A DNA stretch of 64,000 bases from assembly GCA_963808895.1 (NCBI GenBank), contig CAWEHL010000001.1, forward strand, positions 515,560 to 579,559, read 5' to 3'. How positions within the stretch are numbered: the stretch's first letter is position 1; each line of letters begins with the position of its first letter. The notes beneath the pieces are model-generated. The model saw nothing but the letters and a program-made list of their open reading frames with translations, was not told the origin of the DNA and ran no database searches. A program made the translations under genes and the position numbers. Source of the DNA: an uncultured Chloroflexia bacterium (GTDB lineage Bacteria; Chloroflexota; Limnocylindria; Limnocylindrales; CSP1-4). Below, piece after piece: positions 1-14,693 of the stretch.

Positions 1-993
1 TTCCACCGTGCCTGGTGGGACGCGTACGGCGACAACGCCCATGACGAGACGCTGGTGGTATGCGGCGAGGGCGCCTCGGCCGAGCCCATGGCGATCGTCC
101 CGTTGATGCATCGACACGAGGTCGAGCCGACGGATGCAGCGACGCGCACGACCATCCGGCACACCGACGACCTTGGCCTGACGGCCGTCGCCCCGACCGC
201 GAAGGCCATCCTGTTCGGTGCTTCCTACCACTCGGATTACGCCACGGTCCTCGGCGATCCCGCGATCCTCCCGGCCGTCGCGCGGGCCGTTGCCGCCTAC
301 GTCGCCGCGCCGGTCGGTGATGCGTGGGATGTCGTCGATCTGCGACGTCTTCGGTGTCAGGACCCCGCCGGCAACCAGCTCGCTCGTGCGCTCGCCGACC
401 AAGGACTCGGCGAGCTCACCGTCGAACGCGAGGACGTCTGTCCCGTCGTGACCTTCCCGCAGGGCGTCGATATCGAGGGCTACCTCTCGACGCTCGGGAA
501 GAAGGAACGCCATGAGATCCGGCGCAAGGTCCGCCGAGCCGAGGCGATCGGCGAGGTCCGTTTGACCGACTCGACCGATCCGCAGGCCGACCTCGAACTG
601 TTCATCGACCTGCATCAGAAGCGATGGGGCGAGAAGGGCCTGTTCCCCTCGACCAAAGGTGGCGACCAGAGCCGCGTCCTGGTCCGCCGCCTGTTCGAGC
701 TGTTCGGAACGGACGGCCCGTTCAAGCTGACGATCCTCAGCGTCGGCGACCGCCGCATCGGCGCGGGCCTCCATTTCGAGACCGGGTCCGATCTCCTCTA
801 CTACAACGCCGGCATCGACCCCGATGCTCGCGACCTATCGCCGGGCGTCCTGATGATCCACGCGTATGTCGCGCGAGCGCTCGAGCGCGGCATCCGCCGG
901 ATGGACTTCCTGCGCGGCGACGAGTCGTACAAATACGAATGGGGTGCGGTCGACGAGCCGATCCAGCGCGTCCTCTTGCGGCGAGACGGGTGA
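1..993 (+). CDS. GNAT-fold acyltransferase, CelD/BioF2-like (5' end outside window)
   Basis: Frame +1 is open from base 1 (FHRAWWDAYGDN...). The C-terminal block MDFLRGDESYKYEWGA is typical of CelD/Acetyltransf_6 proteins. TGATG stop/start overlap with the next gene. Confidence 0.7.
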   Translation, partial: FHRAWWDAYGDNAHDETLVVCGEGASAEPMAIVPLMHRHEVEPTDAATRTTIRHTDDLGLTAVAPTAKAILFGASYHSDYATVLGDPAILPAVARAVAAYVAAPVGDAWDVVDLRRLRCQDPAGNQLARALADQGLGELTVEREDVCPVVTFPQGVDIEGYLSTLGKKERHEIRRKVRRAEAIGEVRLTDSTDPQADLELFIDLHQKRWGEKGLFPSTKGGDQSRVLVRRLFELFGTDGPFKLTILSVGDRRIGAGLHFETGSDLLYYNAGIDPDARDLSPGVLMIHAYVARALERGIRRMDFLRGDESYKYEWGAVDEPIQRVLLRRDG

Positions 994-2207
994 TGGCCAC
1001 ACACCTCCGCCACGATCCCTGTCTCGAGATGGTCCCGCGGCCCCAGGTGGCGTCGGGCGATCGCATCCGCGTCGTCGAGGTCCTCGCCACCGGGACGAGT
1101 GGCGGCGCACAGGAGCACGTCCTCGGGCTGGTCAGCCGGATGGACCACGCCCGTTTCGACGTCTCGGTCGTGTCGCTGTCGCCGGGGAGTGCCGCTCGGA
1201 AGTTGGAGCGCGCGGGGTTCGAGGTCCTCGTGATCGACGAGCACGACGATGCGATCGCGACCGGCGCACTGGCGGCGCATCTGGTCGATGTGCGGCCGGA
1301 CGTCATCCACAACCACATGTACCGCGCGGAGCTCGTCGGTACGCGGGCGGCGATCGCGCTCGGCGAGGTCGGGCACCGGCGGCCGTACATCGTCTCGACC
1401 GTGCATTCGAGCCGTGTTCGGTCCGAGGAGGACCGCGAGATGCTCCGCGTCCTGACGCCGGCGATGGACCAGCTGATCGCGGTCTCGAAGATGATCGAGG
1501 ACAAGCTCGTCGCGGAAGGACGGACGACTGCCCCGATCACCAGGATCTACAACGGCGTCGATCTGTCCCGCTACGAACGCGTCGAGGCCTGCTGCACCCT
1601 CCCCGACGAGTACGGCATGGAGCCGGGTTCACAGATCGTCGGCGTGGTGGCGAGGCTCGAGCCCGAGAAGGGCCATCCGACGCTCCTCGAGGCGTGGCCG
1701 CCGGTCCTGCGGGCCGTTCCAGACGCGTACCTCCTCATCGTCGGCGAGGGGTCGCGACGCGAGGCGCTCGAGGCGCAGACCCGCGATCTCAGGATCGCCC
1801 ATCGGGTGGTGTTCACCGGTCGCCGCGACGACGTGCCTTCTGTTACCGCGGCCCTCGACGTCGCGGTCCTGCCGTCCTATCGCGAGGCCCAGGGGCTGTC
1901 GATCCTCGAAGCCCTCGCGTTGTCGCGGCCGGTGGTCGCCTCGAACGTCGGCGGTATCCCGGAGATGATCACGGACGGCGTGAACGGCATGCTCGTCCCG
2001 CCACACGACCCCGATGCGCTCGCCGCGGCGATCATCCGTCTGCTGCGAGATCACCCCTTCGCGGACACGCTCGGGCGTGCCGGCCACGACATGGTCCACG
2101 ACCGCTTCTGTATCGACCTCATGGTCGAATCGGTGCAGGCGATCTACGAGGAAGGCGCGCGCTCGGTCCGACCGTCGACGCTGCCCGAGGTCGCCGCCGC
2201 CGTCTGA
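993..2207 (+). CDS. Glycosyltransferase family 4 (GT-B, retaining type)
   Basis: Same frame as track ORF 624..2207; the ATG at 993 overlaps the upstream stop. Motifs EKGHPTLLEAW, GEGSRREALE, VLPSYREAQGLSILEALALSRPVVASNVGGIPEMITDGVNGMLVPP. Confidence 0.85.
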   Translation: MATHLRHDPCLEMVPRPQVASGDRIRVVEVLATGTSGGAQEHVLGLVSRMDHARFDVSVVSLSPGSAARKLERAGFEVLVIDEHDDAIATGALAAHLVDVRPDVIHNHMYRAELVGTRAAIALGEVGHRRPYIVSTVHSSRVRSEEDREMLRVLTPAMDQLIAVSKMIEDKLVAEGRTTAPITRIYNGVDLSRYERVEACCTLPDEYGMEPGSQIVGVVARLEPEKGHPTLLEAWPPVLRAVPDAYLLIVGEGSRREALEAQTRDLRIAHRVVFTGRRDDVPSVTAALDVAVLPSYREAQGLSILEALALSRPVVASNVGGIPEMITDGVNGMLVPPHDPDALAAAIIRLLRDHPFADTLGRAGHDMVHDRFCIDLMVESVQAIYEEGARSVRPSTLPEVAAAV

Positions 2208-2282: not shown

Positions 2283-3692
2283 GTGTCGCTCCGCGCCCTT
2301 TGGTGGTTCCTCGCCATCTCGCTGCCGGTCCTCGCCTCCCTGATCGCGAAGATCTCGACAGTCGATCTCGCCTACCAACTCCGTGCTGGCGCAGAGATCC
2401 TGGCGACCGGCCGGATCCCGACGACCGACACCTGGACCTTCACCATGGCCGGCCAGCCGTGGGTCGACCAGCAATGGGCGGCCCAGATCGTCCTTCGGGC
2501 GATCGAGTCGGTCGGGGGCTGGGTCGGCCTCGCCGCCTTCCGCGCGGTGCTCGTCGGAGCGATCTTCGGCGGAACGTGCCTGATCGCCGTCCGTCGCGGC
2601 CTGGACGTGCGGACCGGCGCGATCCTTTCGCTTCTCGCGTTCGTGGTGGCGGCGCCGGCGCTCGCCCTGCGCCCGCAGCTCCTCGGGATGCTGTGTTTCG
2701 TCGGCGTCCTGCTGCTGGTGGTGGACCGGCGGGAGCATCCGCAGCGATTGTGGCTCGCGCCGGTCATCGTCGCGATCTGGGCGAACATCCACGGCTCGTT
2801 CTTCCTCGGCCCGCTCGTGCTCGGGCTCGCGTGGCTCGAGGACGTCCACGACCGACTCCCGGGTGCGACCCGGACCCTGGCCGTCGCGGGCGTCGCCGCG
2901 CTTGCGGCGTGCCTCACGCCGAGCGGCCCACTGGTCTGGCTCTATGCCGCCGGGCTGACCTCGAACGCCTCGGTGACGGCTCGGGTGACGGAATGGCAAC
3001 CGACCTCCATCCGGGACGTGCCGGGCCTGCTGTTCTTCGCGTCCGCCCTAGCGATCGTGACACTGATCGCCCGCTCGGGGCGGCGAGTGCCATGGCCGAC
3101 GCTCGCCTGGCTCGGTGTCTTCTTCCTGATCGGCGTGTACGCACAGCGAGGCGTCGCCTGGTGGCCGATCGCCGCCGTCACGGCGATCGCCGGCACGCTG
3201 GTGCCGGCGTTCCCCGGGAGGACGAGGGTCGAGACCCAGACGATGCGTCGCCTCAACGCCCTGGTCGCTGGCGTGCTCGTCCTTGCGATGTTCCTGGCCC
3301 TTCCCTCGAATCGCCCGGCCGTGCCCGGCGCCCTCGTGCCGGCGGACGCCGTCGCGCCGGCACCGGCTGGCATCACCGCGAGCCTTCGCGACCTGGCGGA
3401 TCCGGGGGCCCACGTCCTCGATCCGCAGACGTGGGGCTCGTGGTTCGAGTACGCGTTGCCGCAGCTCGAGATGGCCGTCGACTCTCGGATCGAGATGTTC
3501 AGGCCCGACGTCTGGCAAACGTACGAATCGATCGTCTCGGGACAGGACGGCTGGGAGCGCCAGATGGCCGAATGGGGCGTGACGCACGTCGTCGTCGAAG
3601 CCGATGCGACGGCGTTCCGCGACCGGCTCGTCCGTGCCGGTTGGGAGGTCGCGTACGAGGACGCGGACGGCGCGCTCCTGATCCGTCGGTGA
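2283..3692 (+). CDS. Polytopic membrane protein, GT-C-like or polymerase-like (unassigned)
   Basis: 469-aa ORF with about 11-12 hydrophobic spans. Early loop TDTWTFTMAGQPWVDQQW, ANIHGSFFLGP, soluble C-terminal ~110 aa. Function inferred from context only. Confidence 0.6.
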   Translation: MSLRALWWFLAISLPVLASLIAKISTVDLAYQLRAGAEILATGRIPTTDTWTFTMAGQPWVDQQWAAQIVLRAIESVGGWVGLAAFRAVLVGAIFGGTCLIAVRRGLDVRTGAILSLLAFVVAAPALALRPQLLGMLCFVGVLLLVVDRREHPQRLWLAPVIVAIWANIHGSFFLGPLVLGLAWLEDVHDRLPGATRTLAVAGVAALAACLTPSGPLVWLYAAGLTSNASVTARVTEWQPTSIRDVPGLLFFASALAIVTLIARSGRRVPWPTLAWLGVFFLIGVYAQRGVAWWPIAAVTAIAGTLVPAFPGRTRVETQTMRRLNALVAGVLVLAMFLALPSNRPAVPGALVPADAVAPAPAGITASLRDLADPGAHVLDPQTWGSWFEYALPQLEMAVDSRIEMFRPDVWQTYESIVSGQDGWERQMAEWGVTHVVVEADATAFRDRLVRAGWEVAYEDADGALLIRR

Positions 3693-3698
3693 GATGCC

Positions 3699-4442
3699 CT
3701 AGCCGTCCGACCAGAGGTGGAAGGTGTGGACGGCGTGGGTCGGCTCGAAACCGAGGCGGATCCAGACCTTCTGCGCGGGCATGTTCGAGACCTGGGTCGA
3801 CACCACGCAACGCGGGGCACGGAGCTGGGCAGCGTGCCGCAGCGCACCGATGACCAATGCGGGATAGAGGCCCCGTCCCTGGGCATCTGGACGGATCCCG
3901 TTGAGTACGATCTCGGTCTCGGTCTCGCGGCGCTCCGTGCTCAAGAAGCCAGCGATCGCACCGCCGTCCTCGATGACCAAGACGTCGCCGTCCGCCATCG
4001 ACCTGCGCGCCCAGTCGACATATCCGGCATCCGCGGCGGCACGATCGAGGCGGGGGTCGGCGTGGTAGTGACCTTGATACCCGGCGAACGCAGCCTCCGC
4101 GATCGCCGTGATCTCAGCGGTATCGTCCGGCCCAGCCGGACGCACGGGACGAGGCTGCTCGGGGATCGGCCGATCGAGCGCTCGGGCGTAGTGGACCAAC
4201 GTGTCACACAGGCGTCCACCGGCGTTCTCGAGCGCCTGCGCCACCGCCAGGTCGTTCGCGGGCGAGCGAACGATCACCATGGCGACGCCCGATGCCCGAG
4301 CATCCTTGGCGATCGCGGTGACGTCGACCACAGACGCTGCATAGGAGCGCGCGATCGGCACCCCGAACCTCGCCGAATCGACATCGGAGGTCGCCAACGC
4401 CGAGGTAGCGACCAGTCGGGTCGCGGACATGTGCGAAGTCAC
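3699..4442 (-). CDS. Two-domain GNAT N-acetyltransferase, WecD-like (dTDP-4-amino-4,6-dideoxyhexose acetyltransferase type)
   Basis: DSARFGVPIAR, AFAGYQGHYHADPRLD and the C-terminal VVSTQVSNMPAQKVWIRLGFEP..HLW line up by eye with E. coli WecD blocks (RVATQVGNTAALKRYIQSG..YWLY). Confidence 0.65.
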   Translation of the reverse strand: MTSHMSATRLVATSALATSDVDSARFGVPIARSYAASVVDVTAIAKDARASGVAMVIVRSPANDLAVAQALENAGGRLCDTLVHYARALDRPIPEQPRPVRPAGPDDTAEITAIAEAAFAGYQGHYHADPRLDRAAADAGYVDWARRSMADGDVLVIEDGGAIAGFLSTERRETETEIVLNGIRPDAQGRGLYPALVIGALRHAAQLRAPRCVVSTQVSNMPAQKVWIRLGFEPTHAVHTFHLWSDG

Positions 4443-4604: not shown

Positions 4605-4611
4605 CCTGAGC

Positions 4612-5817
4612 ATGACCCAGGAGACCCGCGATCTCGACGTCGTCGTCCTCGGTGGCGGTGGCCACGTCGGGCTGCCGCTCAGCCTCACGCTGGCCGATGC
4701 CGGCTTGTGTGTCGGCATCTACGACACGAGCCAGGCCACGCTGGACCGGATCGCCGCCGGCGACATGCCGTTCCTCGAGACCGGCGCCGACGAGCTGCTT
4801 CGGAAGGTCCTCACCACCGGGCGCCTCGAGCTCGGGACGGACGGCTCGATCATCGAACGCACCGAGACCCTGATCATCGTGGTCGGGACGCCGGTGGACG
4901 AGTTCCTCGGCCCATCGATGACGGTCTTCGAGCGCGTGGTCAACCAGGTCGCGCCGCATCTTCGCGACGGTGCCCTCGTCGTCCTCAGAAGCACGGTCTA
5001 CCCGGGCACGACCGAGTACGTCACCCAGCACCTGGCGGAGGCTGGGTGCCACGTCGATGTCGCCTTCTGCCCGGAGCGCATCGCCGAAGGTCATGCCCTG
5101 GAGGAGCTCCATACGCTCCCGCAGATCATCGGCGCGGATGACGATCGGGCCGCCGAGCGCGCGACGGCGTTGTTCCGAAACCTCGTCAGCAAGACGGTGC
5201 GCGTGTCGACGAAGGAAGCCGAGCTCGCGAAGCTCTTCACGAATACGTGGCGGTACATGAAGTTCGCGGTCGCGAACCAGTTCTTCATGATCGCCGACCA
5301 GGCGGGCGTGGACTACACGAACGTGCTGCGCGCCATCCGTGAGGACTACCCGCGAGCACAGGACCTTCCGGGTCCCGGATTCGCCGCCGGACCCTGCCTC
5401 TTCAAGGACGCGATGCAGCTCGCGGCATTCACGAGCGACCACTTCCCGATGGGTCAGGCCGCGATGCAGGTCAACGAAGGCCTACCCGCGTATATCGTCG
5501 CTGCCCTCGAGCGCCGCTACGGCGGGCTCAAGGACAAGACGATCGGGATCCTCGGCATGGCGTTCAAGGCCGAATCCGACGACACGCGCGCATCGCTCTC
5601 GTACAAGCTGCGCAAGCTCCTGTCGTGGTCGGGCGCCCGAGTGCTCGGCACCGATCCGTACGTCGATGACCCGAGGCTGGTCAGCCTTGAGTGCGTGCTC
5701 GAGGAGAGCGACGTCCTCGTCCTCGGGGCGCCGCACAAGGCGTACCGCGGTCTCCAGATCGGCGGCAAGGATGTCGTCGACGTGTGGGGAGCCCTGGGTG
5801 AAGGGATCCGTCTCTGA
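4612..5817 (+). CDS. Nucleotide-sugar 6-dehydrogenase (UDP-glucose/GDP-mannose dehydrogenase family)
   Basis: Rossmann VVVLGGGGHVGLP, catalytic Cys region GPGFAAGPCLFKD, GILGMAFKAESDDTR. Confidence 0.85.
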   Translation: MTQETRDLDVVVLGGGGHVGLPLSLTLADAGLCVGIYDTSQATLDRIAAGDMPFLETGADELLRKVLTTGRLELGTDGSIIERTETLIIVVGTPVDEFLGPSMTVFERVVNQVAPHLRDGALVVLRSTVYPGTTEYVTQHLAEAGCHVDVAFCPERIAEGHALEELHTLPQIIGADDDRAAERATALFRNLVSKTVRVSTKEAELAKLFTNTWRYMKFAVANQFFMIADQAGVDYTNVLRAIREDYPRAQDLPGPGFAAGPCLFKDAMQLAAFTSDHFPMGQAAMQVNEGLPAYIVAALERRYGGLKDKTIGILGMAFKAESDDTRASLSYKLRKLLSWSGARVLGTDPYVDDPRLVSLECVLEESDVLVLGAPHKAYRGLQIGGKDVVDVWGALGEGIRL

Positions 5818-5882: not shown

Positions 5883-6773
5883 GTGGTCTTCGCCTTGTTT
5901 TCCGGCCTTCAGGCCGTCGAGGGTCTGATCCTGCCGCTGGCCGTGGGCTCGCACGCCGCGAACTACACCGCGGCCGCCGCGGCATGGCTGGCCGGCGGGG
6001 ACCCGTGGCAGGTCGGACCGCCGGCAGCGATCTACGCCGGTCCCCCGCCGATGCTCCTGCTATTCGTCCCGTTCGTCCCGCTACCCGTGGACCTGACACG
6101 CCTGGTGTGGGTCCTCGGGATGTTCCTCGTCGCGATCGGGGTGGTTCGGCGGCTCGGTCTGCCGGGCTACTGGGTCGCGTTCCCGCCGATGTTCCAGGCG
6201 ATCTTCCTCGGCCATCCCGAAGTCCTCGTCGTCGCGCTACTCGTCCTCGGTGGCCCGCTGAGCGGGGTCGCCGCGGTGATCAAGCCGTATGCGGCCGCGC
6301 CGTTGCTCGCGGAGAAGCGCTGGTCGGCATTCCTGGTAGCCATCGCGGTCGTCCTCATCACCGCGCCCTTCTTGCCATGGGCGACGTTCGCCGCGGACCT
6401 TCCAGCCATCGCCGCGAACCTCGTGCGCCAGAACCACGGCGACTCCACGTTCGGGAGTCCGGTCCTGATCGCCCTCGCCATCCTCGCGCTGGTGAGCCTC
6501 GGCGTGCGACGCGGCCTATGGTTGAGCGTCCCGTTGCTATGGCCACTGGCGCAGCCGATGTACAAGACCGTGTCGTTGCCCGCGTTGTCGCCTTTCCTCG
6601 CGATCGCCTGGTCGATCCCAGTCCCTGGTCTCACGCTCGTCGGCGTGGTGATCGAAGCGATCGTGCTGCGATGGGCGTCGCGACGGCCGCTTCCGGTCTG
6701 GCTCATCCATGGCTTCGAGCCCGCGTCGATCCGCGGACCGTTCGGCAGCCCCACCCCTGACCCCGGAGTCTGA
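5883..6773 (+). CDS. DUF2029-like polytopic membrane protein, paralog A (putative small GT-C-type transferase)
   Basis: About 8 hydrophobic spans. AAWLAGGDPW, RRLGLPGYWVAFPPM, ALLVLGGPLSG and ITAPFLPW are shared with the protein at 11488..12381. The frame stays open upstream to 5814, so the start is uncertain. Confidence 0.6.
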   Translation: MVFALFSGLQAVEGLILPLAVGSHAANYTAAAAAWLAGGDPWQVGPPAAIYAGPPPMLLLFVPFVPLPVDLTRLVWVLGMFLVAIGVVRRLGLPGYWVAFPPMFQAIFLGHPEVLVVALLVLGGPLSGVAAVIKPYAAAPLLAEKRWSAFLVAIAVVLITAPFLPWATFAADLPAIAANLVRQNHGDSTFGSPVLIALAILALVSLGVRRGLWLSVPLLWPLAQPMYKTVSLPALSPFLAIAWSIPVPGLTLVGVVIEAIVLRWASRRPLPVWLIHGFEPASIRGPFGSPTPDPGV

Positions 6774-7813: not shown

Positions 7814-8811
7814 TCCAGGCCCCGTGGGAGCGACGACGCGCCCCGAGCCCGTGGGTACCGGAACCCGAGCTCGCGACGGGGATCTCGATCGTCGTCCCCG
7901 TGTACCGCTCCGCCGGGACCCTGCGCGAGTTGGTGCGCCGCCTCACGGAGACGCTCGGAGCGCTCGGCGAGCCGTACGAGATCGTTCTCGTGGAGGACGC
8001 CAGCCCCGACGGCTCGTGGTCGGTGATCGGCGACCTTGCGACCGACGACCAGCGCGTGCGCGGCATCCAGCTCAGTCGGAACTACGGACAACACAACGCG
8101 CTCCTGTGCGGGATCCGGGCTGCGCGGTTCGATCGCACGATCACGCTCGACGACGATCTGCAGAACCCGCCTGAAGAGATCCCCAAACTCCTGGCACGTC
8201 TCGTCGGAGACATCGATGTCGTCTACGGGACCCCGTTGTCCGAGCAACACGGATTGCTGCGAGACCTCGCGTCCAGGATCACCAAGCTCGCATTGCAGGA
8301 GGCGATGGGTGCCGACGTAGCGAGGAACGTCAGCGCCTTCCGTGCGTTCCGGACCCGGCTGCGCGACGCCTTCCCGGCCTATCGCGGGCCGTACGTGTCG
8401 GTGGACGTGCTTCTCACCTGGGGGACGACGCGTTTCGCGCACACGCCGGTCCAGCACGATGCCCGTCGCATCGGCACGTCGGGCTACACCGTTCGCAAAC
8501 TCGTGGCCCACGCGTTGAACATGGCGACCGGCTTCAGCACGCTGCCGCTCCAGCTCGCCAGCGTCGTGGGGTTCATGTTCACGGTCTTCGGATTGCTCGT
8601 CCTTGCGTACGTGATGATCAACTACATCTCGAACGGGCCGAACAACGTGCCCGGCTTCGCGTTCATCGCTTCGATGATCGCCATCTTCAGCGGTGCTCAG
8701 CTCTTCGCTCTCGGCATCATCGGGGAGTACCTCGCACGCATGCACTTCCGCGCGATGGATCGACCCACGTATCTGATCCGTGAACGGACCGATGACGAAC
8801 AGCCCGACTGA
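7810..8811 (+). CDS. GT2 polyprenyl-phosphate glycosyltransferase, GtrB/ArnC-like
   Basis: ISIVVPVYRS, VLVEDASPDGS, SRNYGQHNAL, LDDDLQNPPEEI, plus two C-terminal TM helices ending GIIGEYLARM. GTG 7810 gives a GTGA overlap with the upstream stop; the track ATG at 7777 is the alternative. Confidence 0.85.
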   Translation: MIQAPWERRRAPSPWVPEPELATGISIVVPVYRSAGTLRELVRRLTETLGALGEPYEIVLVEDASPDGSWSVIGDLATDDQRVRGIQLSRNYGQHNALLCGIRAARFDRTITLDDDLQNPPEEIPKLLARLVGDIDVVYGTPLSEQHGLLRDLASRITKLALQEAMGADVARNVSAFRAFRTRLRDAFPAYRGPYVSVDVLLTWGTTRFAHTPVQHDARRIGTSGYTVRKLVAHALNMATGFSTLPLQLASVVGFMFTVFGLLVLAYVMINYISNGPNNVPGFAFIASMIAIFSGAQLFALGIIGEYLARMHFRAMDRPTYLIRERTDDEQPD

Positions 8812-9982
8812 CACGAGGCGAGCGCGCCGCCACGTCCTGCGTGGTCGGGATCCTGGTGTCGTCGCGTTCAACAGGCCGTTCCTCACGGGACGCGAGCTCG
8901 AGTACATCAAGCGTGCGCACGCCAATGGACATCTCGCAGGCCAGGGTGAATTCGCGCGTCTGTCGGGACAGTGGCTCGAAGAGCAGTTCGGATCGGCGCG
9001 CGGTCTGCTGACCCATTCCTGCACGGCGGCGCTCGAGATGTCAGCGATCCTTGCCGACGTCGGGCCTGGCGACGAAGTGATCATGCCGTCGTTCACCTTC
9101 GTGTCGACTGCGAACGCGTTCGTGCTTCGCGGTGCGACCCCGGTGTTCGTCGATATCCGCCCCGACACGCTCAACCTCGACGAGCGGCTACTCGCCGAGG
9201 CGATCACCGACCGAACGAAGGCCGTCGTGCCCGTCCATTACGCCGGTGTGGCCTGCGAGATGGACGCGATCATGGAGGTCGCCCGAGACCGCGACCTGCT
9301 CGTCATCGAGGATGCGGCCCAGGCTGTCCTCTCGGGATACAAGGGGCGTCCTGTCGGCGGCATCGGGCATCTCGCCGCGCTCTCCTTCCACGAGACCAAG
9401 AACGTGATCTCGGGCGAGGGCGGAGCACTGCTGGTGAACGAGCCCGCGTTCGCGACTCGCGCCGAGGTCATCCTCGAGAAGGGGACGAACCGGTCACAGT
9501 TCTTCCGCGGCGAGGTCGACAAGTACACGTGGGTCGACATCGGGTCGTCATACCTGCCCGGCGAGATCGTCGCGGCGTTCCTGTTCGCCCAGCTCGAACA
9601 TGCGGAGGAGATCACGGCGCGGCGACTCGCCATCTGGGCGCGCTATCACGCGGCATTCGAAGCTGCCGAGCGGGAAGGCCTGCTGCGGCGGCCGATCGTG
9701 CCCGACGACCGCGAGCACAACGCCCACATGTACTACCTGCTCCTGCCCGATCTCGAGACGCGAACGATGCTGATCGACGCGCTGCGGACGAGACTCGTGC
9801 ATTCGGTCTTCCACTACGTGCCGCTGCACAGCTCCCCGCAGGGATCCAAGGTCGGCCGCGTGGCCGGCTCGATGGAGGTCACGGAGTCGGCCAGCGAGCG
9901 GCTCGTACGGTTGCCGTTGTGGCTGGGCGTCGAACCCGAACAGGATCGGGTGATCGAAGGCGTCCTCTCGGCGCTCGGATAG
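8780..9982 (+). CDS. wecE: dTDP-4-keto-6-deoxyhexose aminotransferase, WecE type (DegT/DnrJ/EryC1 family)
   Basis: Blocks EVIMPSFTFVSTANAFVLRGATPVFVDIRPDTLNLDE, VPVHYAGVACEMD, FHETKN, EKGTNRSQFFRGEVDKYTWVDIGSSYL, VFHYVPLH and SERLVRLPLW match E. coli WecE as I recall it. The start may be the ATG at 8792. Confidence 0.85.
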   Translation: MNGPMTNSPTDTRRARRHVLRGRDPGVVAFNRPFLTGRELEYIKRAHANGHLAGQGEFARLSGQWLEEQFGSARGLLTHSCTAALEMSAILADVGPGDEVIMPSFTFVSTANAFVLRGATPVFVDIRPDTLNLDERLLAEAITDRTKAVVPVHYAGVACEMDAIMEVARDRDLLVIEDAAQAVLSGYKGRPVGGIGHLAALSFHETKNVISGEGGALLVNEPAFATRAEVILEKGTNRSQFFRGEVDKYTWVDIGSSYLPGEIVAAFLFAQLEHAEEITARRLAIWARYHAAFEAAEREGLLRRPIVPDDREHNAHMYYLLLPDLETRTMLIDALRTRLVHSVFHYVPLHSSPQGSKVGRVAGSMEVTESASERLVRLPLWLGVEPEQDRVIEGVLSALG

Positions 9983-10082
9983 GACGTTCCTTCGTGACAC
10001 GCACCATCTGGCTGCCCGATCTTGCCGAGCGCGCTGCCTATCGTGCGCTCGGCATGGGTCGTCACCCGTGCGGAGGGCGACG

Positions 10083-10739
10083 GTGACACGCCTTCTGCCG
10101 GAGCTGTACGACGCACGCTTCGACGAGCGCGAGATCAGCCGCAAGGACGACGTGTGGCGGGAGATCGTCGCGTACCTGGAGCGGTACATCGACCCGGCCG
10201 GGCCTACCCTGGACGTGGCGTGCGACCGAGGCCATTTCATCCGGTTCGTGACGACTCCCGAGCGGTGGGCCACCGACATCCGAGACATGCGCGCCGCGCT
10301 CCCGACCGATATCCGCTTCGTCCAGGGCTCCGGGCTCGACCTTGCCAAGCTGCTCCCCAACGGCCACTTCGCCACCGTGTTCATGAGCAACTACCTCGAG
10401 CACCTCGAGTCGAGTGACGCCGTGATCGACCAATTGCGCGTCGTCCGCGCGCTGCTTCGCCCTGGCGGTCGGGTGATCGTCCTCCAGCCGAACATCAGGC
10501 TCGTCGGGCCGCGCTACTGGGACTTCATCGATCACCGGGTCGCCCTGACCGAGCGAAGCCTCCTCGAGGCCGCCGAGGTCGCGGGCCTGCGGACCGTTGA
10601 CCTGATCACTCGCTTCCTGCCGTATTCGACGAAGGGCCGTTTGCCCACGGACCAGCGGCTGGTGCGGATCTATCTCCGCCTCCGCCCTGCCTGGTGGGTC
10701 CTCGGGCGTCAGACCCTGTTCGTCGGGGAAGCGACGTGA
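10083..10739 (+). CDS. Class I SAM-dependent methyltransferase
   Basis: GTG 10083 lies 5 nt after GGAGGG (track start is 10068). TLDVACDRGHF (motif I-like), LLRPGGRVIVLQPN. Confidence 0.7.
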   Translation: MTRLLPELYDARFDEREISRKDDVWREIVAYLERYIDPAGPTLDVACDRGHFIRFVTTPERWATDIRDMRAALPTDIRFVQGSGLDLAKLLPNGHFATVFMSNYLEHLESSDAVIDQLRVVRALLRPGGRVIVLQPNIRLVGPRYWDFIDHRVALTERSLLEAAEVAGLRTVDLITRFLPYSTKGRLPTDQRLVRIYLRLRPAWWVLGRQTLFVGEAT

Positions 10740-11491
10740 TCGCGGACGCCGGCGTGGCCGACCGCGACGTGATCCTCTCGATCGTGATGCCCGTCTTCAA
10801 GGAGGGCGATGCCGTCGAGCCGGTGATCCGCGCCCTGACGACCGATGTCGTCACGCCGCACGAGATCCTGGTCGTATACGACTTCGACGAGGACCCGACC
10901 GTCCCGGTCATCGCGCGGCTCGGCGCCGAGCTCCCGGCGGTGCACGGGCTCCGGAACGACCTCGGTCGAGGGGTGTTGAACGCCATGAAGGCGGGCATAG
11001 CCGCCGCGCGGGGAGAGTTCGTCCTCATCACGATGTCCGACGGATCGGACCAGCCGCAGATCGTCGACGAGATGGTCGCCAAGGCGCGCGCCGGTGCCGA
11101 TGTCGTCGCCGCGTCCCGATATATGCGCGGCGGTCATCAGATCGGCGGACCTCGACTCAAGCGCCTGATGAGCCGGACCGCGGGCCTGACGCTCCACTGG
11201 TTCGCGGGCGTCCCGACCCACGATCCGACGAACAACTTCAAGCTCTACTCACGGCGCTTCCTCGAGACCGTGACGATCGACAGCACCGCCGGTTTCGAGT
11301 TGGCCCTCGAGCTGACGGTCAAAGCGACGCTCGACCATCGTCGCGTGGACGAGGTGCCCACGACGTGGCGTGACCGGACCGCGGGCGAGAGCAACTTCAA
11401 ACTCAGGAAGTGGCTGCCGCACTACCTCGATTGGTATCGGCGAGCATTCGTGGGACGCTGGCTTCGGCGACGGGACGCGGCGCCGTCGTGA
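10736..11491 (+). CDS. GT2 polyprenyl-phosphate mannose/glucose synthase, DPM1-like (soluble type)
   Basis: LSIVMPVFKEG, ILVVYDFDEDPT, ITMSDGSDQP, ASRYMRGG, THDPTNNFKLYSRRF. GTGA overlap with the upstream stop. Confidence 0.8.
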   Translation: MIADAGVADRDVILSIVMPVFKEGDAVEPVIRALTTDVVTPHEILVVYDFDEDPTVPVIARLGAELPAVHGLRNDLGRGVLNAMKAGIAAARGEFVLITMSDGSDQPQIVDEMVAKARAGADVVAASRYMRGGHQIGGPRLKRLMSRTAGLTLHWFAGVPTHDPTNNFKLYSRRFLETVTIDSTAGFELALELTVKATLDHRRVDEVPTTWRDRTAGESNFKLRKWLPHYLDWYRRAFVGRWLRRRDAAPS

Positions 11492-12381
11492 TCGGCCGTC
11501 TGCGCCTCGCGCTCGAACGGATCGGCCTGCCGGCCTGGTTCGTCGCGATCGATCTCCTCTGGATCGCGAAGGTCGATGTGCTCGCGATCGACGCGCGCCA
11601 CTACCAGCGCGCGACGAACGCATGGCTCGCGGGGGGCGACCCGTTCGCGGTGACCGAGGGCACGACGCCCTACGTGAGCGGTCCGCACACCCTGTTGTTC
11701 TATGCCCCGACCTCGATCCTCCCGGTGACGGTCGCCACATGGGTCTGGATGGCGCTCGGTGTGGCCGCGTCCGTTTGGCTCATACGTCGTCTCGACCTGC
11801 CGCTGTGGTGGATCCTGTTCCCACCCTTGGCGCACGCGATCTGGAACGGCAACCCGCAGACGATCGCCCTCGCGCTGCTCGTCCTCGGCGGTCCACTCGC
11901 TGCTGCCGCTGCCGTCGGCTTGAAGCTCTACACCGGTCTGGCGCTCGCGTTCCGCTGGCGGGACGCCCTCGTGGCCGGCCTGTTCCTGTTGATCACGTTG
12001 CCGTTCGTGCCGTGGCAGCTCTATCTCGAACACTCCGGGACGGTCGCCGCGCACGTGGCGACGTCATGGAACGGCAGCGCCTGGCGCCTGCCGATCCTGC
12101 TGCCGTTCGCCGCGATCGCCATCTGGATCCTCCGCAAGGAGGGCGGAGCCTGGCACGCGGTGGGGGCGTTGTGGCCGGGAACGCAGTTCTACTACAACTC
12201 GATGGCGCTCCCCGCGATCGCCCACAAGAAGGTCGTGACCGCCTTCCTGGCCGTGCCCGTGCCGTTGATGGCGCCGGTCGTCGTGATCGCGCTCGCAGCG
12301 AAGCACGTGATCGATGCCCGCCGGCAATCGACGAGCGAGCTGCGGGGAGAGCGCAGCCCTATGGCCGAGGCCAGCGGCTGA
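11488..12381 (+). CDS. DUF2029-like polytopic membrane protein, paralog B
   Basis: GTGA overlap with the upstream GT2. NAWLAGGDPF, RRLDLPLWWILFPPL, ALLVLGGPLAA and ITLPFVPW parallel 5883..6773. Confidence 0.6.
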   Translation: MIGRLRLALERIGLPAWFVAIDLLWIAKVDVLAIDARHYQRATNAWLAGGDPFAVTEGTTPYVSGPHTLLFYAPTSILPVTVATWVWMALGVAASVWLIRRLDLPLWWILFPPLAHAIWNGNPQTIALALLVLGGPLAAAAAVGLKLYTGLALAFRWRDALVAGLFLLITLPFVPWQLYLEHSGTVAAHVATSWNGSAWRLPILLPFAAIAIWILRKEGGAWHAVGALWPGTQFYYNSMALPAIAHKKVVTAFLAVPVPLMAPVVVIALAAKHVIDARRQSTSELRGERSPMAEASG

Positions 12382-13660
12382 GAAGCGGTCCGTCGGCCGC
12401 GTCCCTCCGGAGCCAGAGCAGCGAAAGCACGGACAGGGCGACCACCGCCACCGACCCGACGATCCCCAGCGCTCCGGCGACCGGCAGGGCGGCCTCGAGC
12501 CCCGGCGTCGCCGGCACGGCGGCGATGAGGTTCAAGGTGATGACGACCGCGAGGATCGCCGCGAACCAGCGGAGGGATCGGTCCGGGATAAGCAGGAGAA
12601 CGACGACGAGGGCGGCATAGGCGTACCGCTCGTGCATCTGCGTCATCCACGTGAAGATCGTGAGGACCGACGCCACGACCCCGAGCACGAACGTTCGCGG
12701 GCGGGGGTCACGGATGATCGCCAGCCCGATGAGCACGGACAGGATCGCCGTCACGAGGTATCCGAGGTGGCGGAACGTGAACGGGCCGATGATCGCGACA
12801 TCGTCGCGGATGAAGTCACCCCCCGCGGCCACGACCTGGAGGATCCACCACGGATTCCACGCCCGCAGCGACAGGACGTTGAAGATCTCGTTCTGGTACG
12901 TGCCCAGGTTGCGCAGGTACCCGAGCGGGCCGGTGGGCAGGAACGGGATCCACAGCACGGCTGCCGTGACCCCGCCCAGGACACCAGCCCGGATGACGCC
13001 TCGCCAGCCCCCCGTCGCCCAGAACCAGGCCGCGAATGGGATCACGAAGGCGATGGCTTGTGGCTTCGTCATCAGGGACACGGCGATCAGGATCGCGGCG
13101 AGGTCGTTCCGGCCCTTGATCGCCGCGACGACCGCTGCGATAGCCGACAGCGCGAAGATCGCCTCGTATTGGCCCCACCACGCGCTGACGTACCAGGTCG
13201 CCGGCACGAGCAGGACCACGGCCCCGCCGATGGCAGCCCACCGTGGACGATCCCGAAGGGCGTACACGACGAGTGCCGCGAGCCCGAGGTCCGCGATGCT
13301 TGCCGGCAGCTTCATGAGTGCACGGATCGCCGGGTCGCTCGCGTCGGTGACCGTGGCGAACGCAGGCTGGATCGCTGCGAGCAGCGCCCAGACGTACGCC
13401 ATGACCGGGCCGAACGTGACCGGTCCGGCGTCCGTTCCCTCGTACAGCGTCGACAGGCCCTGGGTCGCGATGTGATGGACCCACCCGACGAACTGGTCGA
13501 TATCACCTCGAAGACCTTCGGTCGGGAGGAGCCAGACCCGGATCGCGATCCCGGCGACGACCGCGGCAAGGAGGATCAGCTGGTCGGCACGGCTCCAGCC
13601 GGCCGAGGGTCGATCAGACGCGGCTCGTCCGCCAGTACCGTTCGGCCTGCCCGTCGACAT
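12359..13660 (-). CDS. GT-C family membrane glycosyltransferase (PMT_2/DUF2029-like)
   Basis: 433 aa with more than 10 TM spans. First-loop acidic motif GLRGDIDQFVGW, MKLPASIADLG, MTKPQAIAF. Convergent 23-nt overlap with 11488..12381. Confidence 0.7.
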   Translation of the reverse strand: MSTGRPNGTGGRAASDRPSAGWSRADQLILLAAVVAGIAIRVWLLPTEGLRGDIDQFVGWVHHIATQGLSTLYEGTDAGPVTFGPVMAYVWALLAAIQPAFATVTDASDPAIRALMKLPASIADLGLAALVVYALRDRPRWAAIGGAVVLLVPATWYVSAWWGQYEAIFALSAIAAVVAAIKGRNDLAAILIAVSLMTKPQAIAFVIPFAAWFWATGGWRGVIRAGVLGGVTAAVLWIPFLPTGPLGYLRNLGTYQNEIFNVLSLRAWNPWWILQVVAAGGDFIRDDVAIIGPFTFRHLGYLVTAILSVLIGLAIIRDPRPRTFVLGVVASVLTIFTWMTQMHERYAYAALVVVLLLIPDRSLRWFAAILAVVITLNLIAAVPATPGLEAALPVAGALGIVGSVAVVALSVLSLLWLRRDAADGPLLSRWPRP

Positions 13661-14693
13661 CGCCGACCGAGGCGAGCGCCGCGCCGTACGACCGAACGGC
13701 GTCGCCCATCTGGCGCGAGCCGTCGAACAGCCGCTCGACCTGGCTCTCGTAGATCGAGATGCCGGTGATCTTGCGCTCGATCTGGTCGGTGATGTCCGCG
13801 AACGCCGGGTAGACGCTCACGTCGGCAGGCAAGTCGGCGAATGCGTCCGGTCCGAGCTGATCGAGCGTTCGGAAGTCGTTCCACAGCGCGTAGGGGAAGT
13901 CCTCGTAGAAGACCACGGTCCCCGCGTATTCGGGACCGGGCATGACCCAGCCTTGCCCGAGGTTCAGCAGGTCGATCCCGACCTGGCGGCAGAGCCGATG
14001 ATCGACATGTCCACCGACGCCGAGCGGCAGGTACACCTTCTGCGGCTCGAGGCGCTCGATCTCGCGGCGGATGAGCTGGCCCAGCTGCAGGTCGTCCTCG
14101 CGCGGCGCGCCGAGCAGCTCGGCTTCGCCCTCGTATCCCCGGAAGACCGCGTCGGGCTGATCCAGGAAGACGATCGACGCCTCGGCGAAATAGCAGTAGC
14201 GCTCGTCTTCCATGCGACGACGTGCCGTGAGGTCGCCGGCACCGGCGGCTTCCATGATCTCGTCGGTCGCGACGGCGCCCTGCGTCGGCAGGTCGTCGAT
14301 CACGGGCTGCCCCGCGAGCGACTCGGCACGGATGCTCGCGCGTCGATACCACGACGACCGCTGCCAGAAGCGCTTCGCCGCGGCGTCTGCATCGGTCTGC
14401 GTCGCTTCGAGTTTGTCGTCCTCGGCGGCCCACGCCTGCCCGAGCGGGTAATCCGGCAGGATCGAGCTCCGGTTGTAGGCCTCACCGGACGGCCACACCG
14501 CCTTGCTGCCGACGCCCAGGACCTCGCGTCCGAAGTTCGGGACCCCGGCGACGCCCGCCATGCCGTCCACGTCCTCACCCGAGAAGACCGTGATGATCGC
14601 GACGTTCTGGCCGAGCTCGCGGAGACTCGCGATCAGCCCGCCGCAGGACAGGGCGACATCGTCGGGGTGAGGCGCGACGAAGACGTGGGTCAT
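13614..14693 (-). CDS. PIG-L/LmbE family N-acetylglucosaminyl deacetylase with C-terminal extension
   Basis: VFVAPHPDDVALSCGGLIA and GVGGHVDHRLC zinc-site motifs. Confidence 0.85.
   Translation of the reverse strand: MTHVFVAPHPDDVALSCGGLIASLRELGQNVAIITVFSGEDVDGMAGVAGVPNFGREVLGVGSKAVWPSGEAYNRSSILPDYPLGQAWAAEDDKLEATQTDADAAAKRFWQRSSWYRRASIRAESLAGQPVIDDLPTQGAVATDEIMEAAGAGDLTARRRMEDERYCYFAEASIVFLDQPDAVFRGYEGEAELLGAPREDDLQLGQLIRREIERLEPQKVYLPLGVGGHVDHRLCRQVGIDLLNLGQGWVMPGPEYAGTVVFYEDFPYALWNDFRTLDQLGPDAFADLPADVSVYPAFADITDQIERKITGISIYESQVERLFDGSRQMGDAVRSYGAALASVGDVDGQAERYWRTSRV

Follow-up and report, generated by a model that had tools for sequence, protein, structure and literature searches.

The soil Chloroflexota bacterium (Limnocylindrales) from which this DNA derives carries a probable envelope-glycan gene island of about 31 kb. 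The window, that is, the whole 64,000-nt stretch that was analyzed, begins within this island, and its first 14.7 kb form the island's right half. The original prediction had the locus beginning at base 1; the upstream DNA in fact continues the island for a further ~16 kb, to about −16.7 kb. That upstream half, absent from the original prediction, holds up to six additional GT-C-like genes, which would give the island as many as ten in all. The 14 genes in the window's part of the island are as follows.

1..993, plus strand: CelD/FemAB-like acyltransferase, C-terminal 330 aa of 407 (Pfam Acetyltransf_6, 106 bits); core
990..2207, plus strand: GT4 (GT-B) cytoplasmic glycosyltransferase (Pfam Glyco_trans_1_4, 146 bits; Glycos_transf_1, 138 bits); core
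2283..3692, plus strand: 469-aa membrane glycosyltransferase of GT-C_A fold (GT-C469), about 10 TM (AF2 model and Foldseek); core
3699..4442, minus strand: WecD-like two-domain GNAT N-acetyltransferase (NF008212, 45 bits over positions 13-221 of 232, cut-off 219); accessory cassette
4612..5817, plus strand: nucleotide-sugar 6-dehydrogenase, WecC/Cap5O/CalS8-like (TIGR03026, 278 bits, above cut-off); core
5883..6773, plus strand: 296-aa minimal GT87/PimE-like GT-C, "Ser-His" variant (Pfam GT87, 19.7 bits, below cut-off)
6791..7813, plus strand: extended SDR of epimerase or decarboxylase type (Pfam Epimerase, 132 bits); core, paired with the dehydrogenase
7810..8811, plus strand: ArnC-like polyprenyl-phosphate sugar synthase, GT2 with a C-terminal TM pair (NF007986, 178 bits, cut-off 529); accessory cassette
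8780..9982, plus strand: WecE-type dTDP-4-keto-6-deoxyglucose 4-aminotransferase (NF008687, 582 bits, cut-off 375); accessory cassette
10068..10739, plus strand: SAM-dependent methyltransferase (Pfam Methyltransf_23, 37 bits); core
10736..11491, plus strand: soluble DPM1/AglJ/PpgS-like GT2, putative second polyprenyl-phosphate sugar synthase (Pfam Glycos_transf_2, 60 bits); core
11488..12381, plus strand: 297-aa minimal GT87/PimE-like GT-C, GT-C_B fold (AF2 and Foldseek); core
12359..13660, minus strand: 433-aa ALG6/ALG8-like GT-C (GT-C433), roughly 13 TM (Pfam ALG6_ALG8, 21.6 bits, and GT87, 16.7 bits, both sub-threshold); core
13614..14693, minus strand: PIG-L/LmbE-family de-N-acetylase (Pfam PIG-L, 60.6 bits, cut-off 28.2); core, right-hand end of the island

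The earlier description of 14 tightly packed genes with 4-nt overlaps was borne out. Third-position GC (0.80-0.89 in the chosen frames) supports all 14, and GTGA overlaps join four gene pairs, at 990-993, 7810-7813, 10736-10739 and 11488-11491. The family assignments made at that time were all reproduced in Pfam and NCBIfam searches.

Synteny across 24 same-genus genomes revealed that the island is a mosaic of a lineage-specific core and an inserted three-gene accessory cassette. The gene set had been expected to be conserved as a unit; this holds for the core operon, found in 17-18 of the 24 genomes, and not for the WecE/ArnC part, found in three. The mosaic structure was not part of the original prediction. 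The core runs in the order CelD-like acyltransferase, GT4, GT-C469, dehydrogenase, SDR, methyltransferase, DPM1-like GT2 and small PimE-like GT-C, with a convergent unit in which PIG-L is the first gene and GT-C433 lies downstream. Three genomes that lack the cassette (G024, G015 and G023) keep every core gene, from CelD to the small GT-C plus GT-C433 and PIG-L, next to the same pcm/MFS/HD-GYP flank. PIG-L adjoins pcm in these three and also in G021 and G003.

The full open reading frame of the CelD/FemAB-like gene (−230..993, 407 aa) starts 230 nt 5' of the window, and orthologs occur in G021 and the three cassette-less genomes. The GT4 gene, which starts at 990 or 993 in the GTGA overlap with the CelD-like gene, encodes a protein 75-86% identical to those of relatives. 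The dehydrogenase, whose best PDB match is UDP-ManNAcA dehydrogenase (164 bits), is 80-89% identical to its counterparts in the cassette-less relatives; for the SDR the figure is 86-93%. PDB matches of the SDR are a mixture of GalE-type epimerases and UDP-GlcA decarboxylases (88-93 bits). Assignment of the SDR as RmlB was rejected, as TIGR01181 gives 77 bits against a cut-off of 365. In the cassette-less relatives the methyltransferase gene lies directly 3' of the SDR gene, and SDR, methyltransferase and GT2 genes are contiguous. The DPM1-like GT2, in which a TM search found none, matches the NCBIfam AglJ, PgfS, Dol-P-hexose transferase and PpgS models at 36-44 bits.

Judged from sequence, the transaminase is a true WecE-clade enzyme, above the NCBIfam equivalog cut-off, and the GNAT a distant two-domain WecD-like protein. 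The former also scores 567 bits with TIGR02379 and 456 bits with E. coli WecE (4piw) and conserves the PLP-lysine motif SFHETKN, so that the earlier WecE assignment stands. Both GT2 proteins were likewise found closest to lipid-phosphate sugar synthases, as had been proposed: the ArnC-like one matches ArnC structures over its full length (165 bits; GtrB, 121 bits), and the closest solved relative of the DPM1-like one is the P. furiosus Dol-P-Man synthase (DPMS, 59 bits). Within the genus, orthologs of the ArnC-like gene are confined to G003, G010 and G021, and WecE has orthologs in exactly these three of the 24 genomes, a perfect co-variation. The cassette-less genomes have no WecD-like GNAT at the corresponding position; in the island, this gene is displaced and on the opposite strand.

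Beyond the genus, ArnC-like homologs are 57-73% identical in many other phyla and 89% identical in a near-identical Limnocylindrales MAG. Of 80 surveyed loci whose ArnC-like gene is 57-89% identical, 60 also contain a WecE-like gene, which lies within 3 kb in 58 and on the same strand in 55 (median gap, 816 nt). The gap is usually filled by a WecD-like GNAT (41 ORFs), and eight loci have a formyltransferase there instead. In other phyla, GNAT homologs 24-45% identical to the island's are located immediately after an ArnC-like gene, with WecE on their other side, which agrees with the earlier WecD-like label. Because the three genes form a cassette across many phyla, the amino sugar can be tied to a lipid-carrier loader. 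The conserved partner of WecE/WecD is the ArnC-like loader, not a cytoplasmic transferase of the type used for enterobacterial common antigen (ECA), a pairing that the original prediction had not drawn. A family of 660-690-aa polytopic proteins flanks the cassette in G003, G010, G021 and L020. Since this family has no homolog in the 3.54-Mb assembly, no specific GT-C is assigned here to the product of the ArnC-like enzyme.

All four membrane proteins read as GT-C glycosyltransferases, in line with the original prediction, and the evidence is of unequal strength; none of them resembles a transporter or Wzy-type polymerase. GT-C469, present in 18 of the 24 genus genomes, has no Pfam family match. 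Its AF2 model (pLDDT 85.4, pTM 0.86) has a C-terminal extracytoplasmic alpha/beta domain, and its top 13 Foldseek PDB matches are all GT-C enzymes (STT3, DPY19, AftD, ArnT, AftA; probability 1.0, E 1e-5 to 1e-2, TMq 0.43-0.59), whereas transporters appear only at E ≥0.09 with TM-scores near 0.1. Residues D28, D49 and D62-Q-Q-W, after TM1, are invariant. The gene for the 297-aa protein is translationally coupled to that for the DPM1-like GT2. The best Foldseek matches of the 297-aa model (pLDDT 94, pTM 0.89) are PimE structures 9dm7 and 9dm5 (probability 1.0, TMq 0.55-0.59), followed at much lower probability by ArnT and PglB, and then by ALG3 and PIG-M. Pfam GT87 matches 8 of the 63 members of its family of small GT-Cs (270-300 aa), which among 301 Chloroflexota is confined to the window's own family (11/15). 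The 296-aa protein is a paralog (38% identical, E 3e-35) in which the near-invariant Asp35 is replaced by His, as it is in the G003 and G314 orthologs; a further 268-aa relative lies upstream in the island (hhalign probability 95%). For GT-C433, present in 17 of the 24 genomes, the case comes from homologs, most of which, among the close ones, carry PF03155 (ALG6_ALG8). JGI annotations label such proteins "Gpi18-like mannosyltransferase", and in a profile search against the PDB the top match, a weak one, is ALG6 (E 0.058).

GtrA, Wzx, Wzy_C, ABC-2, Bac_transf and MraY/WecA-type families have no match in the window or within 45 kb of it, which confirms for these families the earlier statement that no flippase, exporter or priming transferase is visible. 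Priming transferase, Wzx, Wzy and ABC-2 genes occur at other loci of the genome, on contigs C3 and C4, and its only GtrA-family gene is also on another contig. Inspection of the DNA upstream of base 1 for rmlA/rmlB and a priming transferase had been recommended. An rmlA/rmlB-like pair, a possible source of substrate, does exist in the genome, 268 kb away (C1:783640-785395; the middle third of the rmlB-like gene is in another frame), while no priming transferase was found nearby. Absences in this genome are weak evidence because the MAG is 71% complete.

The most likely role of the island is assembly of a surface glycan on the outer side of the membrane, with lipid-linked sugars as donors. The best explanation, to which we give a probability of about 0.6, is a "lipid-phosphate sugar plus GT-C" island consisting of the core and a cassette-borne acetamido-dideoxyhexose donor. 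Sugars would be activated in the cytoplasm, loaded by the GT2 synthases onto a predicted polyprenyl phosphate carrier, flipped across the membrane by a carrier, for which no candidate was recognized in the island, and handed by GT-C enzymes to a presumed acceptor on the extracytoplasmic side. The earlier proposal that lipid-linked sugars are made inside the cell and spent outside the membrane is supported by the GT2 families and the GT-C folds. In the core, the dehydrogenase and SDR would give a uronic acid, an epimer of it or a pentose, which the DPM1-like enzyme would probably load and the small GT-C spend. In the cassette, WecE would convert dTDP-4-keto-6-deoxyglucose, supplied by the rmlA/rmlB-like pair, to dTDP-4-amino-4,6-dideoxyhexose, the GNAT would N-acetylate this, and the ArnC-like enzyme would make polyprenyl-P-4-acetamido-4,6-dideoxyhexose (Fuc4NAc or Qui4NAc type), an additional donor for use outside the membrane. 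The sugars named for the two loaders are guesses, since both proteins fall far below any equivalog cut-off, and the pairing of GT-Cs with donors is likewise putative.

Two readings concern the acceptor. It is possible, if doubtful, that this is a membrane-anchored lipoglycan resembling mycobacterial PIM/LM/LAM or GPI anchors. The GT4 would add GlcNAc to a membrane lipid, PIG-L would de-acetylate it, and the CelD/FemAB-like enzyme would re-acylate the amine or acylate the anchor; after flipping, the many GT-Cs would lengthen the chain from polyprenyl-P sugars. A GT4 and a PIG-L protein are the priming pair in the GPI, mycothiol and bacillithiol pathways, and the island has both, with GT4 matches to the BshA, MshA and GlcNAc-PG synthase models. 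PIG-V (PF04188), GT87/PimE, ALG6/8-like and PIG-M-like folds are all present, and a lipid-primed pathway would account for the missing priming phosphoglycosyltransferase and exporter. However, the GT4 and PIG-L genes are 11 kb apart, their matches are all far below equivalog cut-offs, and ethanolamine-phosphate transferase, inositol and PI-synthase genes were not seen. Less probable are protein acceptors, secreted or at the cell surface (S-layer, Tad/Flp pilins, or Pro/Thr/Ser-rich proteins), which the GT-Cs would glycosylate as in actinobacterial Pmt/Ppm1 or pilin glycosylation. PMT_2-type GT-Cs in the upstream half of the island and a Tad pilus gene set 21-27 kb upstream are consistent with this, but a pilin or S-layer gene was not recognized within the island, and a simple protein modification would hardly need as many as ten GT-C-like genes.

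Other readings change the pathway itself. In enterobacteria, WecE and WecD feed the cytoplasmic transferase WecF. By this precedent, dTDP-Fuc4NAc could go to a soluble Leloir transferase such as the island's GT4 for a repeat unit, as in ECA or O-antigen, with the ArnC-like enzyme loading an unrelated sugar. This is unlikely: the GT4 belongs to the core and occurs in genomes that have no WecE, searches in and around the island gave no WecA/PGT, WecF-like, Wzx or Wzy gene, and the ArnC-like and WecE genes co-vary and adjoin each other as described above. A literal Arn-type pathway is more improbable still. Here the dehydrogenase and a decarboxylating SDR would yield an NDP-4-keto-pentose and the transaminase a 4-amino-pentose; the GNAT would acylate this and the ArnC-like enzyme load it; PIG-L, in the role of ArnD, would de-acylate the lipid-linked sugar, and a GT-C would transfer the cationic sugar to lipid A or another anionic lipid. 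The order dehydrogenase, SDR, ArnC-like, transaminase recalls the arn operon, the SDR matches UDP-GlcA decarboxylases (88 bits), the dehydrogenase matches CalS8 (145 bits), and a deacetylase is present. Yet the transaminase, with its 582 bits as WecE, scores 191 bits on the ArnB model (cut-off 631) and, in the PDB, 157 bits with ArnB against 456 with WecE. The pathway is unlikely because the genes for PIG-L, dehydrogenase and SDR are core genes, found in the cassette-less genomes where ArnC-like and WecE genes are missing; of the 80 loci surveyed, only 2, both from close relatives, have a PIG-L homolog with the cassette. Moreover, a search of 41 related genomes, of which 15 are of high quality, gave no LpxC. 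Least credible is that the polytopic proteins are transporters, Wzy-type polymerases or O-antigen ligases. While three of the four have no significant Pfam match of their own, Foldseek favors GT-C over transporters for the 469-aa model, with the same pattern for the 297-aa model, and largely refutes the idea for these two proteins; the Wzy_C and Wzx matches are elsewhere in the genome.

The preferred reading, lipid-phosphate donors spent by GT-Cs, has parallels in several known systems. As in the Arn system for lipid A aminoarabinose (PmrHFIJKLM; ArnB, ArnA, ArnC, ArnD, ArnE/F, ArnT), a 4-aminotransferase, an N-acylating enzyme and an ArnC-type GT2, of which ArnC is the closest solved relative, occur together, with later transfer outside the membrane by a GT-C; the formyltransferase in some cassettes of other phyla is a further likeness. 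Unlike Arn, the island has a WecE-type transaminase (dTDP-6-deoxyhexose) rather than ArnB, the acyl group is probably acetyl, neither an ArnD-type or cassette-linked deacylase nor ArnE/F was found, and an ArnT ortholog is absent. Since LpxC was not found, no lipid A acceptor is expected in the lineage. The ECA branch that makes dTDP-Fuc4NAc shares WecE and an accompanying two-domain WecD-like GNAT, but wecA, wecB/C, wecF, wecG, wzxE and wzyE are absent here; because the conserved neighbor is a lipid-phosphate loader, the donor is probably a lipid-monophosphate sugar outside the membrane, not the dTDP-sugar inside.

Mycobacterial and corynebacterial assembly (Ppm1, PimE, MptA-C, Emb/Aft; PpgS and Rv3779 for GalN on arabinogalactan) likewise combines several polyprenyl-P sugar synthases and many GT-Cs with PimE-like (GT87) folds and, for the cytoplasmic steps, GT4 enzymes and an acyltransferase. 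The island differs in its phylum, Chloroflexota, in the distinct family formed by its small GT87-like proteins, and in that none of its proteins proved orthologous at the sequence level to a mycobacterial enzyme. In Rhizobium, RgtE and RgtA-D use Und-P-GalA donors for GT-C transfer of galacturonic acid to LPS. This offers no more than a lead, as the island's dehydrogenase and SDR beside a DPM1-like GT2 and a GT-C would fit a core donor in which a uronic acid, or a sugar derived from one, is linked to a lipid, although the Rhizobium acceptor is LPS, which this lineage apparently lacks. Gtr-type and Gram-positive three-component glycosylation systems (GtrB/GtrA/Gtr*; CsbB/GtcA/YfhO), as defined in PMC11127046, also pair a GT2 polyprenyl-P sugar synthase with GT-C transferases acting outside the membrane. 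In contrast to these, the island has no GtrA, SMR or MATE flippase gene, its predicted donor is an acetamido-dideoxyhexose rather than Glc or GlcNAc, and it has many GT-Cs where they have one. The island is an uncharacterized variant of a known scheme, and the mechanism itself is not new.

The source metagenome-assembled genome comprises 3.54 Mb in 8 contigs, with 69.5% GC and an estimated completeness of 71%. Since all reading frames are open, genes were selected by their GC content at third codon positions, which is 0.80-0.89 in the frames retained, and confirmed with Pfam and NCBIfam. The original prediction had placed 14 tightly packed genes in positions 1..14693 and read them as an envelope-glycan locus whose lipid-linked sugars are made inside the cell and spent outside the membrane. 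All 14 genes are present, with the same coordinates or coordinates a few codons off, the family assignments were obtained again, and the interpretation as a whole is supported. Intergenic gaps are at most 170 nt throughout, and GTGA overlaps join the CelD-like gene to GT4, the SDR to the ArnC-like gene, the methyltransferase to the soluble GT2, and that GT2 to the small GT-C.

Genes of the window discussed here, by window position
First gene, start codon 230 nt before the window: CelD/FemAB-like protein (Acetyltransf_6)
Start at 990 or 993: GT4
2283..3692: 469-aa membrane protein
3699..4442: WecD-like two-domain GNAT
5883..6773: 296-aa membrane protein
7810..8811: ArnC-like GT2
8780..9982: WecE
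10068..10739: methyltransferase
10736..11491: soluble DPM1-like GT2
11488..12381: 297-aa membrane protein
12359..13660, convergent: 433-aa membrane protein

The locus also encodes a nucleotide-sugar dehydrogenase (278 bits, NCBIfam), an extended SDR, and a PIG-L/LmbE de-N-acetylase that exceeds the Pfam gathering score (PF02585, 60.6 bits vs 28.2). The last is not a bacillithiol enzyme, because it scores 35 bits against the BshB1 model, where the cut-off is 182.

Comparison with same-genus genomes separates a core from a cassette. Three genomes that lack the cassette (G024, G015 and G023) carry, in this order, CelD, GT4, the 469-aa GT-C, dehydrogenase, SDR, methyltransferase, DPM1-like GT2 and a small GT-C, with the 433-aa GT-C and PIG-L on the opposite strand. 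Three insertions distinguish the window from this core: the GNAT, a second small GT-C (296 aa), and the ArnC-like and WecE genes together. A near-identical Limnocylindrales MAG is arranged like the window. Of the 24 genomes compared from the same GTDB genus, 18 have the 469-aa protein and 17 have the 433-aa protein; orthologs of WecE (55-71% identity) and of the ArnC-like GT2 (69-72%) occur in an identical set of three (G003, G010 and G021). The flank at 14730-19657 contains pcm, an acidic single-TM protein, a DUF5317::MFS fusion and an HD-GYP phosphodiesterase, and lies beside PIG-L in G021, G003, G024 and G015; pcm, DUF5317::MFS and HD-GYP also bound the core in all three cassette-less genomes. 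This conserved pcm/HD-GYP flank marks a fixed chromosomal site for the variable island. The methyltransferase at 10068..10739 was considered as a cassette gene and rejected, because it adjoins the SDR and GT2 in genomes without the cassette; the cassette of G021 has a methyltransferase of its own.

Among the cassette enzymes, WecE scores above both curated cut-offs (582 vs 375 bits for NF008687 and 567 vs 435 for TIGR02379, with residues 28-396 covered), and its PLP-lysine motif, SFHETKN, is identical to that of the E. coli enzyme (4piw, 456 bits). The GNAT falls under the WecD equivalog cut-offs (45 vs 219 bits for NF008212 and 32 vs 195 for TIGR02382), and a sequence search of the PDB gave no WecD match. 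It has a two-domain WecD-like architecture with a C-terminal GNAT domain, aligns to positions 13-221 of 232 in NF008212, and its homologs in G021 and in other phyla are flanked by ArnC-like and WecE genes. The ArnC-like GT2 scores below the cut-off of the ArnC equivalog model NF007986 (178 vs 529 bits), which places it in an ArnC-like clade rather than with ArnC itself. Its residues 24-325 align end to end with ArnC 9-312 (165 bits) and GtrB 27-328, the closest solved relatives, and it has a DDDLQNPP acidic motif and two C-terminal TM helices. For the soluble GT2, the catalytic domain alone matches DPMS (59 bits). The ArnC-like and WecE genes lie in the lowest-GC part of the island (0.653 for positions 8001-10000 vs 0.67-0.70), which, together with the strong match of WecE to the E. 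coli enzyme, is consistent with horizontal acquisition of the cassette.

Additional evidence on the cassette came from a scan of one genome per species, which gave at least 590 relatives of the ArnC-like protein; the best 80 (57-89% identity) were analysed. These best 80 loci are from Acidobacteriota, Proteobacteria, Verrucomicrobiota, Myxococcota, Planctomycetota, Gemmatimonadota, Armatimonadota, Anaerolineae and others. A WecE-like gene is found in 60 of them, within 3 kb in 58 and on the same strand in 55; where at least 3.5 kb of flank was available on both sides, it lies within 3 kb in 41 of 52 loci. The median gap between the two genes in the best 80 is 816 nt, and the gene lying there is most often homologous to the GNAT of the window (41 ORFs, with full-length identities of 24-45%). 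Formyltransferases take this place in 8 of the 80 loci, and methyltransferases are frequent; the canonical order, as in G021, is ArnC-like, GNAT, methyltransferase, WecE. Mainly because of this co-variation and adjacency, we propose that the ArnC-like enzyme would load the WecE/WecD product onto polyprenyl phosphate. No description of the cassette, or of Limnocylindria envelope glycans, was found in the literature.

In G003, G010, G021 and a further relative's locus (L020), the cassette stands beside a family of 660-690-aa polytopic proteins, present in one to three tandem copies with 40-67% mutual identity and matching no Pfam or NCBIfam model.

Positions of the 660-690-aa family in the retrieved loci of relatives
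L016:353-6320 (G021)
L018:9812-11884 (G003)
L017:7215-11268 (G010)

This family is probably the cassette's own transferase. Since it has no homolog in the assembly under study, the window's cassette appears to be a compact form without the usual presumed transferase. Similarly large polytopic proteins of no assigned family flank the cassette in 49 of the 80 best loci, in other phyla; practically none of these has a Pfam assignment, and none has BLAST similarity to this genome.

The original prediction regarded four membrane proteins as GT-C-like transferases. Fold comparisons bear this view out for the 469-aa and 297-aa proteins; for the 433-aa and 296-aa proteins it is likely, from homolog annotation and paralogy, respectively. 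A hydropathy scan gave about 7-13 hydrophobic segments in each of the four, partly overlapping. Soil metagenomes contain more than 1,400 homologs of the 469-aa protein, all of them lacking Pfam domains. The AlphaFold2 model of this protein, built from 42 sequences (pLDDT 85, pTM 0.86), retrieved GT-C enzymes as all of the top 13 Foldseek matches (STT3, DPY19, AftD, ArnT and AftA; probability 1.0, TMq 0.43-0.59, and 0.45-0.59 for STT3, DPY19, ArnT and AftD), whereas transporters matched with E-values of 0.09 or worse and TM-scores of about 0.1. It has invariant acidic residues after TM1 and a C-terminal alpha/beta domain. Neither it nor the 433-aa protein matched the PDB in a plain sequence search. 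With hhalign, the upstream 594-aa and 407-aa proteins and the 660-aa protein of G021 all showed no relation to the 469-aa family profile, and the comparison labelled A2 vs A3 gave no relation. Homologs of the 433-aa protein mostly belong to PF03155 (ALG6_ALG8) and carry the JGI name "Gpi18-like mannosyltransferase"; ALG6 ranked first, weakly, in a PDB profile search.

About 520 clusters at 50% identity make up the family of the 297-aa protein. The model of this protein (pLDDT 94) is best matched by PimE (probability 1.0, TMq 0.55-0.59), followed by ALG3 and PIG-M. GT87 (PF09594) is matched by 8 of 63 family members (best E-value 2.5e-9); of the two window proteins, the 296-aa protein scores 19.7 bits, below the gathering score of 25, and the 297-aa protein gives no match. 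The two are paralogs (38% identity, E-value 3e-35), and a 268-aa upstream protein is related to them (hhalign probability 95%). Among 301 Chloroflexota genomes sampled, members of this small GT-C family were detected in 11 of the 15 that belong to the window's own family, and elsewhere there were only three borderline matches. The catalytic Asp of PimE lies in the first extracytoplasmic segment. A candidate counterpart, Asp35 in a GxDARxY motif, is present in at least 90% of the 297-aa family, including the window's protein. In the 296-aa protein, Ser-His (GSHAANY) replaces x-Asp, a substitution kept in the orthologs of G003 and of G314, another relative. The variant gene always lies between the dehydrogenase and SDR genes in these three genomes, including the cassette-less G314, which argues that it is a distinct subfamily and not part of the cassette. 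It may use a different catalytic base or be a non-catalytic subunit. Its candidacy as the cassette's dedicated GT-C is weakened by G314, where the His-variant lies between dehydrogenase and SDR and the DPM1-like GT2 comes immediately after the SDR, without ArnC-like or WecE genes.

The substrate of WecE is dTDP-4-keto-6-deoxyglucose. An rmlA-like gene followed by an rmlB-like gene lies on the same contig (C1:783640-785395), about 268 kb downstream of the window start. The rmlB-like match has model positions 202-289 in another frame than 1-186 and 290-320, reflecting either two compensating frameshifts or long-read assembly errors. The island's SDR was rejected as a local RmlB (77 bits vs 365); it is equally like epimerases and UDP-GlcA decarboxylases, and the dehydrogenase most resembles enzymes of the UDP-ManNAcA, UDP-Glc and CalS8 types. 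The dehydrogenase, SDR, methyltransferase, DPM1-like GT2 and small GT-C genes form one tight core operon, which probably provides a further, uronic-acid-derived donor on a lipid carrier. An ArnC-like GT2 in the company of these genes raises the alternative of a literal Arn pathway. This is unlikely because the transaminase is WecE rather than ArnB, because the dehydrogenase, SDR and PIG-L are found without the cassette, and because no LpxC was found in 41 relatives. PIG-L was also rejected as an ArnD-like deacylase of the lipid-linked amino sugar, since it is a core gene in cassette-less genomes and accompanies the cassette in 2 of the 80 loci.

The island extends upstream of base 1 to a total of about 31 kb. 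Its GT-C-like genes number up to ten, and its DPM1/ArnC-type GT2 domains up to four.

Upstream genes of the island (negative values are window positions; L001 is a retrieved upstream stretch)
L001:8965-10965 (-11035..-9035): 666-aa fusion of a 10-TM PIG-V/PMT_2-type GT-C domain and a C-terminal Dol-P-hexose-transferase-like GT2
-9299..-7935: true GT87 (84 bits)
L001:15327-17444: second NF037959 gene, three ORFs here
L001:18200-19759: 519-aa "fused MFS/spermidine synthase" (NF037959)
Upstream of base 1: 407-aa 8-TM protein
Upstream of base 1: 268-aa small GT-C relative
Upstream of base 1: GT2
Upstream half of the island: methyltransferase, PMT_2 protein, and 594-aa protein of no assigned family

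By its domain composition, the 666-aa fusion would thus combine a donor synthase and a lipid-sugar-using transferase in a single polypeptide. The split NF037959 gene is a single ORF of 749-769 aa in G021 and G015, and reflects either assembly indels or a pseudogene. Past about -17 kb lie a two-component system (LuxR-type) and Tad pilus genes. The Tad/Flp set (L002:3104-8889, at -26.9 to -21.1 kb) includes two TadB/C-like T2SSF proteins, a CpaF-type ATPase, a response-regulator::ParA-like protein and RcpC/CpaB.

Our best guess for the product is a lipid-primed lipoglycan. In its favour are the trio of GT4, PIG-L and acyltransferase, the lack of any priming phosphotransferase, and folds resembling PIG-V, PIG-M and PimE; a wall polysaccharide or a glycoprotein is a possible acceptor. 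A more far-reaching reading, which we consider rather unlikely as a whole, draws on the counts of GT-C-like genes and GT2 domains together with GT4, PIG-L and the FemAB/CelD-like acyltransferase. On this view the core would be an assembly line specific to the family, its product a membrane-anchored lipoglycan or a wall glycan polymerised outside the membrane, and would represent in Chloroflexota an independent equivalent of mycobacterial LM/LAM/arabinogalactan or GPI-core synthesis; the PimE-like proteins of 270-300 aa would constitute a novel minimal family of GT-Cs, and the mobile cassette a strain-variable "serotype" decoration.

Limnocylindria are abundant uncultured Chloroflexota of soil and freshwater, and we know of no information on their envelope chemistry. 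The island predicts a surface glycan that enzymes belonging to no Pfam family assemble outside the membrane, with several lipid-phosphate sugars as donors, and the travelling amino-sugar cassette predicts strain-level surface variation. The cassette spans Acidobacteriota to Planctomycetota, and one biochemical characterisation would provide annotation for hundreds of genomes. The minimal PimE-like proteins of about 300 aa would be convenient models of GT-C_B catalysis. We see no consequence for health or for applications.

The original prediction saw no flippase, exporter or priming transferase in the window, and the conventional PGT, Wzx, Wzy and ABC genes indeed lie on two other contigs. GtrA, Bac_transf, Wzy_C, Wzx, ABC-2 and further DegT aminotransferases are found there in two conventional polysaccharide loci (C3:265-345 kb and C4:1.05-1.06 Mb), indicating that the genome has separate Wzx/Wzy-type glycan pathways. 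The island shares WecE with the enterobacterial common antigen cluster, but wecA-type priming (MraY/WecA) and wzxE/wzyE-type (Wzx, Wzy_C) matches were not found within 45 kb. In the general scheme of extracytoplasmic lipid-phosphate-sugar glycosylation, a GT2 synthase, a flippase and a GT-C act together (PMC11127046). A dedicated GtrA flippase had no match on the window's contig, the sole GtrA being at C3:265140. The other two components are present in the island: the polyprenyl-phosphate sugar synthase type by sequence, and a GT-C-fold transferase by structural model. The island, with its uncharacterised sugars, GT-C families and acceptor, is read as using this known mechanism, in which glycosylation outside the cytoplasm depends on lipid-phosphate sugars.
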